Source: a virus
Lineage: Duplodnaviria > Heunggongvirae > Uroviricota > Caudoviricetes
DNA length: 5,416 nt
Strand: one strand, 5' to 3'
IMG/VR virus record: IMGVR_UViG_2698536485_000013
In this document: positions 1 through 5,416 of the stretch, in pieces
Layout of the letters: each line of letters opens with the position of its first letter
How positions within the stretch are numbered: position 1 is the stretch's first letter
The notes under the pieces: model-generated
Seen by the model: only the letters and a program-made list of their open reading frames with translations
Database searches by the model: none
Told to the model about the DNA's origin: nothing
Made by a program: the position numbers and the translations under genes

Positions 1-1
1 A

Positions 2-808
2 GTCTCCAGGATTTCCGGGGCGGTTCAACAATCAATTGCAAATTATATCAGCCCAATGGCCCAGCTATGGGAGTTAGCTTCATCACGTTACCACGATGCA
101 CCAGAAAGGGCGCTCTCCTCCTGGCGAGGGCATAGGCTTGATGTGGCACAAAGTAGAGAGAGCTATGAGGCATTTTCTAACAAAGAGCTATTGCAGGTGT
201 TGCAAGTATTTTCCGGTAATTCAGCAGAAAACAAAGAAATGATAGCTTTGTGTCTTATCGGTGCTTATACAGGTATGCGGATCAATGAGATAGCAAGTCT
301 CACAATAGACGATGTGAAAGAGATCGAAGGTGTGCTGTGTTTTGAAATCACACAGGGAAAAACGAAAGCTGCGGCACGTGTTGTGCCTGTGCATAGCCTT
401 ATCACTCCATTGGTGTTATCTCTTCGTGAAAAGCCTCACAATGGCTTTTTGTTCTATCACGCCAGCATTACAGAGCGTGCTGATGGTAAACGTTCCACGT
501 GGCACACGCAGAGATTTACAAGAGCTAAACGAAAGGCTTTAGGGGAAAAGGGAACAGAAAGGAAGGTGTTTCATTCTCTGAGACACGGAGTAGCACAGCT
601 TCTTGATCGAAATCAAATTCCAGAAGACAGGATCGCCCTTCTCCTGGGCCATACACGCGGCAATACAGAAACATTCCGCACATATAGCAAGAATGCAGCT
701 TCTCCAGTAGAGCTTAAAAAATATATTGAGCTTCTACGCTACCCTGAAATAGAGAAAGGCTTATCAATCAATAAAAAATCAAATTTAAGGCGTAAAACAA
801 CGCCATAG
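2..808 (+). CDS. int: Tyrosine-type site-specific recombinase (phage-type integrase), C-terminal catalytic portion; 5'-partial, the reading frame is open to the left window edge
   Basis: The translation carries the tyrosine-recombinase catalytic signature in the right order: box I Arg (AYTGMRINEI), a Lys-containing beta-turn (TQGKTKAAARVVPV), HxLRH (FHSLRHGVAQLL), LLGH, and a C-terminal Tyr (TETFRTYSK). The frame containing ATG 56 has no stop between position 2 and 56, and 250 aa is short for this family, so the N-terminal arm/core-binding region probably lies upstream of the window. Stop is TAG at 806-808. Confidence 0.88.
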   Translation, partial: VSRISGAVQQSIANYISPMAQLWELASSRYHDAPERALSSWRGHRLDVAQSRESYEAFSNKELLQVLQVFSGNSAENKEMIALCLIGAYTGMRINEIASLTIDDVKEIEGVLCFEITQGKTKAAARVVPVHSLITPLVLSLREKPHNGFLFYHASITERADGKRSTWHTQRFTRAKRKALGEKGTERKVFHSLRHGVAQLLDRNQIPEDRIALLLGHTRGNTETFRTYSKNAASPVELKKYIELLRYPEIEKGLSINKKSNLRRKTTP

Positions 809-889: not shown

Positions 890-1603
890 CTATTCCTGTT
901 TAAAGGCAGGAGTAATAGTGTCTTCACCTTCACTACTTGATTTTTCAGTGTTAACACGTTTTTTCATATTAGCCCCGATGTTCTTAGATGGCTGTGTTTT
1001 GATAGCTACAGTGTTCACAGTGCCATAAGAAACTAATCTTATTTGCTCAAAGCTAAGATCAAATACCAGGGATTCGCTTGCCTCTTCTGTGTATTCGATT
1101 CCTGTTAAAACAACGTTCTCAAAAGTTTTATTTTCTGTAACAAGAAGAAAAGGCTGTCTACTGTCCATAATCTGATTCAGGTAGTCGATAGCTAATGATC
1201 TTCTGTTCCCGTTCACCCCTGCACTCTTTAACAAGCCAGGATCGCTTTTAATCGGTGTTTCAGTGATCCTTCCTTTAAGAGAAAACTTATTGTTTTTAAT
1301 TTGAACGTGATCAGACACAGTAGCACCATTTTCTACGGGGTAGCTTGTAACATCTGCCGAACGTCTCACGTTCACATCGTCAACACTATCAAAGGCCAGT
1401 GCCATATAATTTTCATAAACATCATTGCCAGAAGATGCCAAGCCACTGGTAACAATAGCAAATCCGTTCTCTCCTTTTGTTTTATTGGCTTTGCTATTTT
1501 CGTTTTTTGTAGAGTTTATATCTTGTTCTGCTTTGTAAACAGCCTGAACGTGTTGTTCTGGAGTATTTGCTGCACGTATGGTTAAAATCCCGGCGGTCGC
1601 CAT
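890..1603 (-). CDS. Hypothetical protein, 237 aa, last gene of the minus-strand operon; function unknown
   Basis: ATG at 1603-1601, with AAGGAAA about 13 nt upstream on the minus strand. Long uninterrupted ORF; the start lies 34 nt downstream of the 609-aa gene stop, same strand. The protein is rich in Ser/Thr/Asn/Val with a Lys-rich N-terminus and acidic C-terminus. No catalytic motif recognised. Confidence 0.7.
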   Translation of the reverse strand: MATAGILTIRAANTPEQHVQAVYKAEQDINSTKNENSKANKTKGENGFAIVTSGLASSGNDVYENYMALAFDSVDDVNVRRSADVTSYPVENGATVSDHVQIKNNKFSLKGRITETPIKSDPGLLKSAGVNGNRRSLAIDYLNQIMDSRQPFLLVTENKTFENVVLTGIEYTEEASESLVFDLSFEQIRLVSYGTVNTVAIKTQPSKNIGANMKKRVNTEKSSSEGEDTITPAFKQE

Positions 1604-1637: not shown

Positions 1638-3467
1638 TTACCCGCCGTTGGATTGTCCTGATAAGCTGGTTAATGTTAATGATTTCAAGAAGCTATCCCG
1701 ACTTGCTCTCGCTGTAAAATCCACATAATCGCTTAATCTTGATGTGTCTGAATTAATAGTAAGAGGAACCTCTGTTACCACTTCAAATGTAGGATTCAGA
1801 TTAAACACAGGAGATAAATTATAAGCCGGAGTTGTCATTGCAAGATTATTTAAAGCACCCTGTTTGAGATTGGTTATCGGTGCTTCGCTGACTGACATTT
1901 TTACATCTGACACAGAAGAATTATCATCGAAAAGCAATCCCTTAATCGTGTTAAAGAGAGAATGACTATTATCAGGTGTAGTTGTTGCAGTGCCAGCGCC
2001 TTTATATTGGTCAGGAACGAGATTAGAAAGATGCTGTTTCATCCCTTCATTGCTTAATGGCGGTGCATCACCTAAATTTTTCTGAATAGCATCTGTCTTA
2101 TCATCATTACGATTAAACCAGTTTACAATCTTCATAATAGCTTCAAAGAGACTTCCTACAGCTTCTCCCAGCTTCGTAAAATACGGAGTGAGATTAGAAA
2201 GGTTTTTCAAAAACTCTTCCGTTACTTTTGGATCGAGAGATTTCATAAAGCCGTCTACGAATGCTACTTGTCTTGCATCAGAAAGCTGTGAAAGCTGTCT
2301 GTTTAGTTCTCTGAATTTAACAATAGAGTCTTGCTGTGTTTCTGTTAGCCATTTTCCAGAGGCTTTTTGCTGATTAATACTTTCTTGTACATCTTTAACG
2401 GAACGTTGCCAATATTTTGACGTAAGCATCAAATCATCGCCCAGGTCTTCTAAACGTTGTCCAATTTGGGAGTCTGAAAACCCTTTTTTCATCATTCCAT
2501 TAACAGCCTTAGAAATTAATCCAGCCGGATTATCAGCAAATTTTTTAAGGTCGCTTTTGTTAATAACACCGATGTTTAGAAGTTCATTAATAGCATTATC
2601 ACCGCCTTTCCATTCAGATTTTCCGGTTTTCTTGTCTTTCACCAATTCAGCTTCACTGTAGGATTTTGCGGCACGTTCCCTAACATCTTTCATCTGATCC
2701 AGGTATTTCCTAGCCCCTTGATCACCCATCATAGAGTCAACGCCGTTTCTATAGGCCCATTCTGTAATGTTGTACATCTGGTTAACGTCTACACCGCCAA
2801 GCCTTGCACGTTGAATTAGCTCTCCTTGTGTCTCAGCATTGGCAAAACTATTAGCCATAAATTCACCGGTTTTACTAACCGCCATCACGCCAGCAGCAGC
2901 CGTAGCGCCTCCAAATAACAGAGCGCCCATAGTGGCGGAATTCCCTGATCCTCCCTTAACGGGGGCTAATTGAACTTTTCTGTTGCCATTAATCTTACGT
3001 TGTTGTTGTTGTAAGCGTTTCATCTGGCTATTCATACGTGCAAGCGAGATAGCCCCTTGCTCATATTGTTTCGCTATCTCTCTAGCCTGTGCAATAGCTT
3101 TGTATTGTTCCGCTACAGAGAGGCGGTGCATTGCACTGATAGAGCTTGACACATCAAGGAGCTTTAATTCTGCTTTCTCTTTACGTGCTGCTATTTGTTG
3201 CTGTTGCCTTGCCTGTGCTCTTGCTGCGGCAGCTTGTGCTCTTTGATTCTGTTTTTCTGTTTTGGCTTTCTGTTGAGCAATCTTATCTACTTCGCTTTGT
3301 GCTTTCTTATAGCCTTTAGTGACATTATCAAATCTTAATTTAGCTGGCTTGATGTTTTCTGCGAATTCCTTTAAGCCTGTAATAGAGTCTTTCGCTTTTT
3401 TCAAGCTGTCTTTATCTACACTAAATGTAACTGTGTTCTTAATTTTAGAAGTGTTAATTTCTAACAT
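1638..3467 (-). CDS. Hypothetical large protein, 609 aa: N-terminal Lys/Gln/Ala-rich predicted coiled coil, a Gly/Ala-rich hydrophobic segment, then a large C-terminal domain; function unknown
   Basis: ATG at 3467-3465 preceded by AAGGGGA about 8 nt upstream; stop TAA at 1640-1638. Residues ~55-165 (nt ~2970-3300) are heptad-like and charged (AQQKAKTEKQNQRAQAAAARAQARQQQQIAARKEKAELKLL, RLQQQQRKIN). Residues ~172-200 (nt ~2868-2954) read GGSGNSATMGALLFGGATAAAGVMAV. The start lies 18 nt downstream of the 66-aa gene stop. Confidence 0.8.
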   Translation of the reverse strand: MLEINTSKIKNTVTFSVDKDSLKKAKDSITGLKEFAENIKPAKLRFDNVTKGYKKAQSEVDKIAQQKAKTEKQNQRAQAAAARAQARQQQQIAARKEKAELKLLDVSSSISAMHRLSVAEQYKAIAQAREIAKQYEQGAISLARMNSQMKRLQQQQRKINGNRKVQLAPVKGGSGNSATMGALLFGGATAAAGVMAVSKTGEFMANSFANAETQGELIQRARLGGVDVNQMYNITEWAYRNGVDSMMGDQGARKYLDQMKDVRERAAKSYSEAELVKDKKTGKSEWKGGDNAINELLNIGVINKSDLKKFADNPAGLISKAVNGMMKKGFSDSQIGQRLEDLGDDLMLTSKYWQRSVKDVQESINQQKASGKWLTETQQDSIVKFRELNRQLSQLSDARQVAFVDGFMKSLDPKVTEEFLKNLSNLTPYFTKLGEAVGSLFEAIMKIVNWFNRNDDKTDAIQKNLGDAPPLSNEGMKQHLSNLVPDQYKGAGTATTTPDNSHSLFNTIKGLLFDDNSSVSDVKMSVSEAPITNLKQGALNNLAMTTPAYNLSPVFNLNPTFEVVTEVPLTINSDTSRLSDYVDFTARASRDSFLKSLTLTSLSGQSNGG

Positions 3468-3485: not shown

Positions 3486-3686
3486 TCATTTTTTACCACC
3501 TTCTTTGCTTAAGAAATGGTGTAGAGCCTGATCAATACTCTCGTTTAGTCTGAACATACGGGCTTTTACTCCTTCATATGGAACATCTAAGAGAGAACAT
3601 AGATATTTCAGATTTAACAAGCCTCTAGAATCATTAGCATCTAAATGTACGTGTACACCATTTTTTGATTTCAGAATCACTTCCAT
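3486..3686 (-). CDS. Small hypothetical protein, 66 aa, tightly linked upstream of the 609-aa gene
   Basis: ATG at 3686-3684 with GAGAGGTGA about 7 nt upstream on the minus strand; stop 18 nt before the 609-aa gene start. Confidence is lowered by the short length and lack of recognisable motifs. Confidence 0.55.
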   Translation of the reverse strand: MEVILKSKNGVHVHLDANDSRGLLNLKYLCSLLDVPYEGVKARMFRLNESIDQALHHFLSKEGGKK

Positions 3687-3710: not shown

Positions 3711-3755
3711 AAAATAAATAAAAAAAGGCGAAGCGTGTTATTCACGCCACGCCTC
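3711..3755 (-). terminator. Putative intrinsic (rho-independent) terminator or attenuator on the minus strand, between the 342-aa gene and the 66-aa gene
   Basis: Seen in sequence, read on the minus strand: GC-rich interrupted hairpin (3726-3730 AGGCG with 3751-3755 CGCCT; 3733-3737 GCGTG with 3743-3747 CACGC; loop TTATT), immediately followed by a T-rich run (reverse complement of 3711-3725 = TTTTTTATTTATTTT). It begins 18 nt after the 342-aa gene stop. Confidence 0.55.
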
Positions 3756-3772
3756 TATTACACGTTAAAATA

Positions 3773-4801
3773 TTATTTAACAGTGATTTGAACGGAGAAG
3801 CCAACGCCGTGGTTTACAACCATCTGGCTATTCTCTGTAACAACGTTAACAGCATCACCACGAGAAGATTCATAGCTGTAGCTATACACCTCAGCAGGAG
3901 CGGCATTGATCAGTTCAAAGGTGCTGGAAGCAGCCCCGTAGATGTTCTGATATACATTAGAGCCTTTAGCAAACTTCGGAACCGCTACAGCGTCTGCGGT
4001 CATATGTGCAAGGTGTAGCGGATCTACCAGTTTAACAACATCAATGTTAGTTCCTGGAATAGTGAACGCTGTCACCCCCGGTAGCAGGTCACGACGCTGA
4101 TACACAACGTTCCCTTCTTCCAGTGGGCTTACATACTGGAATGCGTTTGCCATACCCGCAGAGAATCGAATTGCAGAGAAGGCTTCAGGTTTACAGAACA
4201 CAACAACACGCTCAATGGTTGCAGCCTGTTTTTGTGCCTTAGCAATCATATCCGTAGCAATCTGATCAAATTCTTTAAAAATCTTCGTGGTGTCAGTGCT
4301 GGAAGCGTTCACAGTGGCTTTCATAGCTGATACGTTAAACAGCTTGCCCCATTCGATAAGAACATCATCAGTTTTAGGCGTGTAAGTTTTACCGCTAAAC
4401 AGAGATGCAGCCAGCACGCTCTCTTTTGTACGCTGATACGCTACGTGGTGTTTAGCAACATAGTCAGCATAGATATCAGTGAGTGTTTCCTGAAAATCAG
4501 TGCCAGGCTTACGCTTGCCTTGAACATCAGAAGGACGGATCACATCTTCACGAAGAAAATACGGGATTTCAATAAGCCATTCTTTACCTTGTTCTCGCTT
4601 AGTAACGTTGTGTTCAGAAGAGAAACGAGAGGTTTCTTTGTTAAAGAGAGATTCGTTGCTTTCGACAAGCTGGGAAACAGCTACTTTATGAGAACTAACG
4701 CCCACCGGATCAGTGAAGTCGAGGGTAGAGAGCAGAAAGTTACGCGTGCTGTGTGTCTGGAAAAGCGGAGCTAAATCAACGTAATCATTACCTAGAATCA
4801 T
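3773..4801 (-). CDS. Hypothetical protein, 342 aa, second gene of the minus-strand operon; function unknown (structural versus enzymatic not resolvable from sequence)
   Basis: ATG at 4801-4799 preceded by AAAGGAA about 7 nt upstream; long clean ORF, with only a 15-nt gap to the upstream gene remnant. Followed by the terminator-like hairpin. C-terminal third is rich in beta-formers (Val/Tyr/Ser/Thr). Confidence 0.8.
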   Translation of the reverse strand: MILGNDYVDLAPLFQTHSTRNFLLSTLDFTDPVGVSSHKVAVSQLVESNESLFNKETSRFSSEHNVTKREQGKEWLIEIPYFLREDVIRPSDVQGKRKPGTDFQETLTDIYADYVAKHHVAYQRTKESVLAASLFSGKTYTPKTDDVLIEWGKLFNVSAMKATVNASSTDTTKIFKEFDQIATDMIAKAQKQAATIERVVVFCKPEAFSAIRFSAGMANAFQYVSPLEEGNVVYQRRDLLPGVTAFTIPGTNIDVVKLVDPLHLAHMTADAVAVPKFAKGSNVYQNIYGAASSTFELINAAPAEVYSYSYESSRGDAVNVVTENSQMVVNHGVGFSVQITVK

Positions 4802-4816
4802 TTATTATTCCTTTTA

Positions 4817-4998
4817 TTAAGAAGTGAAAACAGAATGGAACCCTTCAAGCTGAAAGCCTTTTTTAATTAATGCTGTTTTTGCTGCTTCACTTACAGCATT
4901 CAGGGCATCAGCTTTGATGCATACAAGCCCAGCATTGCTACGTAGCACATCTACAGGCTTGTTTTCCCCAGCCGTTACAAATTCACTCAGAACAACAT
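4817..4998 (-). pseudogene. 3' remnant (~59 codons) of the operon's 5'-proximal gene, interrupted by the IS3 insertion
   Basis: The minus-strand frame is open from the IS3 junction (4999) down to TAA at 4819-4817 and continues into IS3 sequence. The only start in the ORF track (5014) lies inside the IS3 terminal repeat, so it is fortuitous. Tight 15-nt spacing and an RBS for the next gene support a real, formerly longer gene. Confidence 0.5.
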
Positions 4999-5037
4999 TG
5001 ATCTTACCCAGCAATAGTGGACACGCGGCTAAGTGAG
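4999..5037 (+). repeat. IS3 left terminal inverted repeat (IRL), approximate extent
   Basis: Established knowledge: the IS3 terminal inverted repeats are about 39 bp and begin with 5'-TG. The exact inner boundary is not verifiable here because the right end is outside the window. Confidence 0.6.
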
Positions 5038-5063
5038 TAAACTCTCAGTCAGAGGTGACTCAC

Positions 5064-5363
5064 ATGACAAAAACAGTATCAACCAGTAAAAAACCCCGTA
5101 AACAGCATTCGCCTGAATTTCGCAGTGAAGCCCTGAAGCTTGCTGAACGCATCGGTGTTACTGCCGCAGCCCGTGAACTCAGCCTGTATGAATCACAGCG
5201 CTACAACTGGCGCAGTAAACAGCAAAATCAGCAGACGTCTTCTGAACGTGAACTGGAGATGTCTACCGAGATTGCACGTCTCAAACGCCAGCTGGCAGAA
5301 CGGGATGAAGAGCTGGCTATCCTCCAAAAGGCCGCGACATACTTCGCGAAGCGCCTGAAATGA
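5064..5363 (+). CDS. insE: IS3 transposase OrfA (helix-turn-helix DNA-binding and leucine-zipper component)
   Basis: The protein MTKTVSTSKKPRKQHSPEFRSEALKLAERIGVTAAARELSLYESQ...LKRQLAERDEELAILQKAATYFAKRLK matches IS3 OrfA as I recall it. ATG at 5064 has GAGGTGA 5 nt upstream. The ORF track's start at 5055 is an in-frame GTG and is probably not the real start. Stop TGA at 5361-5363. Confidence 0.9.
   Translation: MTKTVSTSKKPRKQHSPEFRSEALKLAERIGVTAAARELSLYESQRYNWRSKQQNQQTSSERELEMSTEIARLKRQLAERDEELAILQKAATYFAKRLK
5326..5363 (+). promoter_or_regulatory. Probable programmed -1 ribosomal frameshift region of IS3 (A-AAG slippery motif near the orfA 3' end, upstream of the orfA/orfB overlap)
   Basis: Seen in sequence: CAA AAG at 5325-5330 in the orfA frame, followed by GC-rich sequence and the ATGA overlap. 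Established knowledge: IS3-family elements make the OrfAB transposase by -1 frameshifting. The exact slip site is assigned from memory and is not verified. Confidence 0.4.
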
Positions 5364-5416
5364 AGTATGTCTTTATTGAAAAACATCAAGCTGAGTTCAG
5401 CATCAAAGCAATGTGC
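5360..5416 (+). CDS. insF: IS3 transposase OrfB (DDE catalytic component), first 19 codons only; 3'-partial at the window edge
   Basis: ATG at 5360-5362 overlaps the orfA stop (ATGA) in the -1 frame and encodes MKYVFIEKHQAEFSIKAMC, the recognisable N-terminus of IS3 OrfB. Confidence 0.85.
   Translation, partial: MKYVFIEKHQAEFSIKAMC

Follow-up and report, generated by a model that had tools for sequence, protein, structure and literature searches.

The protein of 342 residues encoded on the minus strand at positions 3773..4801 of the DNA analyzed here, a stretch of 5,416 nucleotides (IMG/VR record IMGVR_UViG_2698536485_000013; the window, hereafter), is an HK97-fold major capsid protein, and of this fold assignment taken by itself we are nearly certain. 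The window is 100% identical to part of the chromosome of Escherichia coli 13E0725 (NZ_CP020092.1, 4,105,076-4,110,491), where the capsid gene belongs to a genomic island inserted at the tRNA gene thrW. This island is a small integrative replicon with an integrase, a Rep-like gene and iterons, in which no portal, terminase, protease, sheath or tube genes were found. The set of three virion genes that it does carry, for the capsid protein, a tail tape-measure protein and a tail-tube initiator, points to a satellite rather than a prophage because of its location inside a small integrative replicon. We consider it probable, at roughly 60% for the whole chain of reasoning, that the island represents a new satellite family whose helpers are virulent phi92-like phages. 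For the more detailed proposal, a previously undescribed satellite family of the Enterobacterales that uses virulent myoviruses of ~148 kb, replaces three parts of the helper virion (capsid, tape measure and tube initiator) and captures the helper terminase via a copy of the terminal-repeat boundary, the odds seem to us evenly balanced.

The question of what the 342-residue protein is has an ordinary answer. The protein itself is nothing new, since its family is known and the databases annotate it already (RefSeq WP_032314456.1, "major capsid protein"). It is the element surrounding the gene that offers a concrete and testable candidate for a satellite of virulent phages in E. coli.

The capsid protein and its relatives

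The capsid open reading frame (ORF) has an ATG start and its product matched the Pfam family PF03864 (Phage major capsid protein E, or Phage_cap_E) with an E-value of 5.7e-14 and a score of 52.3 bits, against a gathering cut-off of 22.9. The match spans residues 23-341 of the protein and positions 18-329 of the 329 in the profile, and a precomputed match to PF03864 is carried by all of the capsid homologs. The protein also matched PHROG 29, "major head protein." A family profile built from 24 members matched the solved capsid protein of phi92, gp124, over its full length (E=2.7e-18), along with four other solved capsid proteins. Relatives outside the island clade were not returned by a word-indexed profile search, and an exhaustive HMMER search produced 246 clusters at E<=1e-3. 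Second among the sequence relatives is PDB 9zbi_A (profile E=2.8e-16), a solved "Capsid protein" of 344 residues, the same length as members of the island capsid family.

An AlphaFold2 model of the protein, based on an alignment of 76 sequences that included distant representatives, had a predicted local distance difference test score (pLDDT) of 87.3 and a predicted template modeling score (pTM) of 0.83; it superseded a model from a shallow alignment of 24 sequences, whose pLDDT was only 57.5. The model has the hallmarks of the HK97 fold, namely a 30-residue spine helix (residues 107-136), a β-hairpin (residues 74-88) and the sheets of the A- and P-domains. In a Foldseek search of the PDB the top match was the PhiTE capsid protein (9cul_M; E=1.2e-20, template modeling (TM) scores of 0.76/0.79, root-mean-square deviation of 4.0 Å), with the ICP1 coat protein, Bas63, Sf14, YSD1, Chi and lambda gpE ranked below it. 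The top matches in both the PDB and BFVD were exclusively capsid proteins, and encapsulins appeared far down the list with TM scores of 0.43-0.51, versus 0.70-0.79 for the phage capsid proteins. The protein resembles the lambda gpE/Phage_cap_E family (phi92 gp124, PhiTE, ICP1, Sf14 and Bas63) in its length of ~340 residues, its HK97 fold, in which a long spine helix is combined with A and P domains, and the lack of a fused scaffold domain. The original prediction, made from the letters of the window alone, had described the product as having an unknown fold and had posed a choice between a capsid-like structural protein and an enzyme, to be checked by structure prediction and Foldseek. That check, together with the PF03864, PHROG 29 and gp124 profile matches, supplies the fold and decides the choice in favor of the capsid.

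Within this family the protein is set well apart: its identity to phage capsid proteins reaches only ~15-25% (~23% to phi92 gp124), and it forms a separate clade whose members reside in chromosomal islands of Enterobacterales without portal or terminase genes. The ORF delimited by the original prediction is a genuine gene: all 30 of the copies recovered are intact, at 342-345 residues, and the median ratio of nonsynonymous to synonymous substitution rates (dN/dS) was 0.10 (range 0.04-0.18 in 114 pairs). The intactness of the copies and this low ratio imply that the capsid gene is functional and not a relic.

The gene was present in 393 of 5,426 complete E. coli genomes (~7%), in up to three copies, never on plasmids, and with 70-100% nucleotide identity. 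Homologs with at least 37% identity were found in Citrobacter, Klebsiella, Enterobacter, Cronobacter, Serratia and Sodalis, and a more distant one (28% identical) was found in a genome, probably of Yersinia, that shares the genes flanking the Serratia island.

The island and its links to phi92-like phages

In strains free of insertion sequences (IS), such as O26:H11 strain 11368, whose island occupies 321,428-333,881 of NC_013361, the island is bounded by 24-nt repeats of the thrW 3' end that lie 12,430 bp apart. A sister island with a different integrase is situated at tRNA-Gly, between tRNA-derived 24-nt repeats 12,163 bp apart. Reading from the tRNA end, the island has ~3 kb without convincing ORFs, two tiny ORFs, a gene for a 230-residue helix-turn-helix (HTH) protein, four small genes, genes for proteins of 70 and 120 residues, the capsid gene, a terminator, a gene for a protein of ~66 residues, the tape-measure and tube-initiator genes (609 and 237 residues) and a divergent tyrosine integrase gene. 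Only the integrase, capsid and tape-measure ORFs exceed 240 residues. The absence of portal, terminase, protease, sheath and tube genes noted above, to which baseplate genes can be added, refers to searches of the island ORFs against Pfam, PHROGs and NCBIfam; NCBIfam returned nothing relevant for the island proteins.

The HTH protein resembles phage replication initiators (PHROG 270, E=2.6e-9; also PHROGs 428 and 391). In the ORF-free stretch of the window strain's locus (L001, NZ_CP020092.1) there are five 22-bp iterons (CCCCCTAGCTCACAGTGACCTACC) at 25515-25627, adjoined by an AT-rich stretch at 25440-25510, and the two together look like a replication origin. Iterons that differ in sequence are present at the equivalent place in other variants of the island, as GATACCCCTATCAA repeats in the locus L033 and as three copies of TTCCTACCTACCCAGGAAATGAG in L009. 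Beyond the iterons of L001, at ~25250-25400 on the minus strand, there is a further non-coding element (…CCGCTCAC…GCGTTACT…GCGCTGTGCGCAGAA…) that is kept across the diverged variants L009 and L033. It had no Rfam match and could be a priming site or a structured RNA.

Both of the tail proteins have their closest counterparts in a single group of phages. The 609-residue protein (1638..3467, minus strand) matched PHROG 16051 with E=8.8e-54, and its best phage relatives by tblastn are all phi92-like myoviruses of ~146-150 kb (Justusliebigvirus, Phapecoctavirus and kin), including Klebsiella phage 05F01. It matched the phi92 tape-measure protein gp134 (PDB chain 21vq_V) with E=1.8e-37, and in a local tblastn comparison was 53% identical to gp134 over residues 1-66 and 28% identical over residues 86-451. 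The 237-residue protein (890..1603, minus strand) matched the Pfam family PF21821 (Dit_like; E=3.4e-29), is 60% identical to phi92 gp135 (PDB chain 21vq_N, E=2.1e-78) and also matched the PhiTE "tube initiator" (9cuy_K). The genes for gp134 and gp135 are adjacent in phi92. None of the small ORFs of the island matched the structural region of phi92. The original prediction had raised the possibility that the operon is a morphogenesis module; this holds for the capsid, tape measure and tube initiator, but does not extend to the portal, protease, terminase, sheath or tube.

A link to the same phages was also found outside of the coding regions. When the non-coding DNA of the island was compared by blastn with 50,697 phage records, 62 records matched, all through one short segment and all from the same group of ~146-154-kb phi92-like phages. 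The segment is part of a 72-nt non-coding block that lies outside the window, at 26865-26936 of L001 (approximately 4,116,940-4,117,011 of NZ_CP020092.1) and at 5110-5185 of the island locus L008. In the window strain 40 of 40 nucleotides of the block are identical to nt 318-357 of phi92. According to the annotation of phi92, the left direct terminal repeat runs from nt 1 to nt 343, so the shared sequence straddles the inner boundary of the repeat, with ...AATCGCGTTA on the repeat side and AGCACCTCTCGCAA beyond it. Phi92, Klebsiella phage phi1_175008 and Citrobacter phage Tr1 have exactly the same 27-nt core, GAAAATCGCGTTAAGCACCTCTCGCAA, between diverged flanks, which marks the core as a constrained cis element of these phages and makes it a candidate packaging site for the subfamily that can be put to the test. 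The wider island block of ~72 nt starts at TGATATTTGGGG, and the island variants are unrelated from exactly its left edge.

In E. coli, 427 of the 5,426 complete genomes had the block once or twice, each time in a chromosomal stretch without annotation, and in every case inspected it was inside an island bearing the capsid gene, ~5.6-6 kb from that gene. Both the thrW and the tRNA-Gly islands of E. coli carry it. Among the GTDB species representatives there was a single match to the core, in a mis-binned fragment of the same island. We also observed a second, weaker match between island and phage, of 21 of 22 nucleotides (TTTAGACC(C/G)CTTATTTTTAAT), between L001 24764-24785 and phi92 147,334-147,355, in non-coding DNA near the right end of the phage; it is present in three E. 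coli island variants, and its E-value of ~7e-4 came from a small search, so that its significance is uncertain. Several ~146-kb records named as "Campylobacter phage" (A150, A145, C3 and A110a) carry the phi92-type repeat-boundary sequence, and "Campylobacter" phage records were also among the matches of the tape measure and the tube initiator. These records look like phi92-like coliphages that were deposited under another host name.

The capsid and tape-measure genes are present in every island variant, and the order of capsid gene, gene for ~62-66 residues, gene for ~600-630 residues and integrase gene is kept in E. coli, Klebsiella, Serratia and the Yersinia-like genome. The tube-initiator gene is present in only some variants, being missing from the Klebsiella, Serratia and Yersinia-like islands and from E. 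coli islands at the yqeG site. The 120-residue gene is in all variants but the Yersinia-like one, in which an IS3-family element (rve transposase) is immediately upstream of the capsid gene. Between islands at the same thrW site the synonymous divergence (dS) was 0.2-0.4, which looks far above the expectation for E. coli core genes. Based on these values at a shared site, the element seems to circulate horizontally.

The satellite reading and its alternatives

As we envisage it, the island would be a satellite of virulent phi92-like myoviruses (Stephanstirmvirinae). Infection by a phi92-like phage would lead the element to excise and replicate, and the island capsid protein, probably with the conserved 120-residue protein as its partner, would assemble on portals of the helper into shells fitted to 12 kb. 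The terminase of the helper would then recognize the 72-nt copy of the terminal-repeat boundary and package the element, and the island tape measure and tube initiator would be built into otherwise helper-made tails, replacing those of the helper. The terminator after the capsid gene may serve to keep capsid transcripts in excess over tail transcripts.

Several observations weigh against this proposal. The IMG/VR matches are no evidence of encapsidation since they are provirus calls from isolate genomes. The use of the repeat-boundary sequence as a terminase site is suggested by its position and conservation; only the right edge of the phi92 terminal repeat is copied, and a search of the island for the left edge did not find it. 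In addition, the block is absent from the yqeG-site variant of E. coli and from the Klebsiella, Serratia and L031-L035 islands, and the non-coding DNA of the Klebsiella, Serratia, yqeG-site and L033-type islands had no match to phages. At ~23% identity to phi92 gp124, the fit of the island capsid protein to the portal and scaffold of the helper is an assumption. Finally, a satellite has no evident need for a tape measure and tube initiator of its own.

The main rival explanation, which we regard as unlikely, is that the island is a non-transmissible anti-phage interference island, in which a decoy capsid, tape measure, tube initiator and terminase site poison the assembly and packaging of phi92-like phages and thereby protect the population. 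Such an island would account equally well for the homologs of three phi92 virion proteins and of the repeat boundary, and it is also consistent with the presence beside the repeat block of a variable cargo slot that holds a recombinase-family gene, a gene for a 183-residue protein or, in Klebsiella, Dam. There is also precedent, in that satellites and prophages block helper assembly, for example with the Tai tail-assembly inhibition systems (PMC11364771). However, no island protein matched a PADLOC defence model, which leaves the defence or effector role entertained by the original prediction without support, and a full-length capsid protein with all of the HK97 elements intact and a dN/dS of 0.10 is more than a decoy would need. 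The integrase, attachment (att) sites, own origin and the dS of 0.2-0.4 at the same att site indicate frequent horizontal movement, and such movement requires a vehicle, which counts against an island that is never packaged. Interference is nonetheless compatible with the satellite reading and the two are not mutually exclusive.

Somewhat less probable again is that the island is a satellite of another, unsampled helper and that only the E. coli lineage has recently acquired the phi92-like genes and repeat block. The capsid protein is no closer to one known phage than to another (~23-25%), and the tube initiator and repeat block are both missing from the Klebsiella, Serratia, Yersinia and yqeG-site islands, as this explanation would have it. 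Yet the tape measure is in all variants and has its best matches in the same phage subfamily, Klebsiella phage 05F01 included, and the best solved relative of the capsid profile is phi92 gp124. We give little credence to a decaying remnant of a larger prophage with the capsid gene as a functionless leftover. The genes carry phage annotations in RefSeq, the copy in the window has two IS3 insertions and a truncated integrase, and some copies have a frameshifted or IS-disrupted tape-measure gene, but the same compact 12.2-12.4-kb layout, bounded by clean att repeats, is seen in four genera, at more than one tRNA site and with more than one type of integrase, and all 30 capsid genes are intact under strong purifying selection. 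Moreover, phi92-like phages are virulent and we know of no lysogenic forms that could leave a remnant.

The remaining alternative, that the protein is an enzyme such as a P-loop NTPase or else forms an encapsulin around a cargo enzyme, can be set aside: encapsulins share the HK97 fold and appear low in the fold-search lists, but their TM scores are no higher than 0.51, the neighbors of the capsid gene are tail genes and an integrase with no cargo-type gene adjacent, and the NTPase part is already refuted. The minimal A-x4-G-K-T string on which an NTPase might be based (AASLFSGKT, residues 131-139) is not a P-loop because 19 of the 24 family members have Q, T, E or R in place of its lysine, K138, and because in the model the string is at the C-terminal end of the spine helix 107-136, which runs into a strand at 138-140, a helix-to-strand turn that is the reverse of the strand-loop-helix topology of a Walker A motif. 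The original prediction had been correct in declining to call this string a P-loop.

Returning to the satellite reading, the island has several of the features by which satellites are generally recognized, as judged from its sequence: an integrase with att repeats, a size within 7-20 kb, apparently its own replication module, and an incomplete virion and packaging set. By gene content it falls outside the definitions of capsid-forming phage-inducible chromosomal islands (cfPICIs), P4-like satellites and, as far as tested, phage-inducible chromosomal islands (PICIs). Like cfPICIs, it has its own HK97-fold capsid protein and is proposed to obtain other virion parts from its helper. Reportedly, the head module of cfPICIs is complete (portal, protease, head-tail connectors and small terminase) and their helpers are temperate; in the island the capsid gene is the sole head gene found, there are two tail genes besides, and the helper is presumed to be virulent. 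P4-like satellites are ~12 kb elements that integrate at tRNA sites and have a helper-derived packaging site, and the island is similar to them in its size, its tRNA-site integration and its candidate packaging site. Unlike P4, which remodels the P2 capsid protein, the island encodes its own, and no homologs of psu, sid, delta, epsilon or the alpha primase were found in it with Pfam, PHROGs and NCBIfam. Known satellites either reshape the coat of the helper, as P4, the Staphylococcus aureus pathogenicity islands (SaPIs) and the phage-inducible chromosomal island-like elements (PLEs) do, or carry a full head module, as cfPICIs do. To our knowledge, the E. coli satellites described so far (P4-like, PICI and cfPICI) all use temperate helpers.

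The closest parallel can be drawn with the PLE of Vibrio cholerae, a small integrative island on the large virulent myovirus ICP1 that has its own replication initiator and origin and uses the packaging machinery of its helper, features that the island would share. The ICP1 coat protein (8g1r) belongs to the same structural clade as the island capsid protein. PLE is described as reshaping this coat protein with an external scaffold, TcaP, in the title of PDB entry 8g1r and in PMC12846349. It thus differs from the island in using the coat of its helper, whereas the island encodes its own coat, tape measure and tube initiator, and there is no sequence homology between the two. If our proposal is correct, the island is an E. 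coli counterpart of the Vibrio PLE-ICP1 pair and possibly the first satellite of virulent phages to be recognized in this species. Supplying only a coat, tape measure and tube initiator would then be a new solution to the problems of capsid size and entry, and would provide a minimal system for studying the demands that a coat protein places on a portal and scaffold that are not its own. We found no published description of this element in the full-text literature, but that coverage is without most subscription journals, so a prior description is possible. Phi92-like phages (Justusliebigvirus and Phapecoctavirus) are widely isolated as candidate therapy or biocontrol agents, and an island present in ~7% of complete E. 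coli genomes might interfere with such phages, or ride on them.

Other features of the window and the island

Directly after the capsid gene is an intrinsic terminator or attenuator (3715..3756, minus strand), comprising a 13-bp interrupted stem at 3724-3756 followed by a U7 run. Its folding free energy is -24.8 kcal/mol (z = -4.3), and none of 200 shuffled sequences folded equally well. A hairpin and U-run is present at the equivalent position in all island variants (the E. coli, Klebsiella, Serratia and Yersinia relatives), and the retention of this position despite differing sequences argues for a functional terminator. The original prediction had named the capsid gene as the first intact gene, followed by an attenuator, and had suggested that it encodes the most abundant product. 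The attenuator is real, and the gene is literally the first intact one because an IS3 element has reduced the 120-residue gene upstream to a C-terminal stump; the abundance that was deduced from these two features is reasonable. Between the capsid and tape-measure genes there is always a gene for a small protein, of 66 residues in the window (3486..3686, minus strand), which had no family match in Pfam, PHROGs, PADLOC or NCBIfam.

The stump of the 120-residue gene encodes the C-terminal 65 residues (4817..5014 or 5002, minus strand). We considered whether the 120-residue protein could be a homolog of the phi92 decoration protein gp123 and rejected this on the basis of an hhalign probability of 1%; the profile of the protein had no sequence match in the PDB. 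At the other end of the structural genes is the island tyrosine integrase gene (26..808, plus strand), which has lost its N-terminus to a second IS3 element. The intact form found elsewhere has 425 residues, with DUF6538 and Phage_integrase domains.

The two IS3-family insertions of the window strain thus flank the structural genes, one truncating the integrase (window 1-25; L001 13760-14973) and the other splitting the 120-residue gene (window 5040-5416; L001 20064-21226). The portion of the latter within the window (5040..5416, plus strand) is its left end, with the orfA transposase gene, and is foreign to the island. This insertion is common to several cattle and human isolates, and it separates the capsid, tape-measure and initiator genes from the upstream operon and its promoter. 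With the integrase truncated, the 120-residue gene split and the capsid operon cut from its promoter, the copy of the element in strain 13E0725 is probably disabled. Elsewhere the tape-measure gene is frameshifted in strain E423 and interrupted by ISKpn26 in MSI001.

In L001 a near-consensus sigma-70 promoter (TTGACA…TAATAAT) was observed on the minus strand at 24290-24440, and it is also present in L009 and L033. Between this promoter and the first small ORF of the operon there is a conserved short hairpin with a T-run (TTTGAGCCGTCAGGCTGCAAGGTGT-TTTT) that looks like a leader terminator, so that antitermination might be needed. Rfam found nothing on the island except the IS3 frameshift pseudoknot and thrW.

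The cargo slot is situated between the origin and the repeat-boundary block, at 26317-26856 of L001, 25614-26165 of L002 (the locus of strain E423) and 4394-5083 of L003 (the Klebsiella locus). It is similar to the accessory hot spots of other satellites; the 183-residue protein found there looks secreted, and the Klebsiella cargo is a Dam methylase. In strain E423 the island is in tandem with a remnant of a P22-like prophage (gtrABC and tailspike) at the same thrW site (L002 27880-34985).

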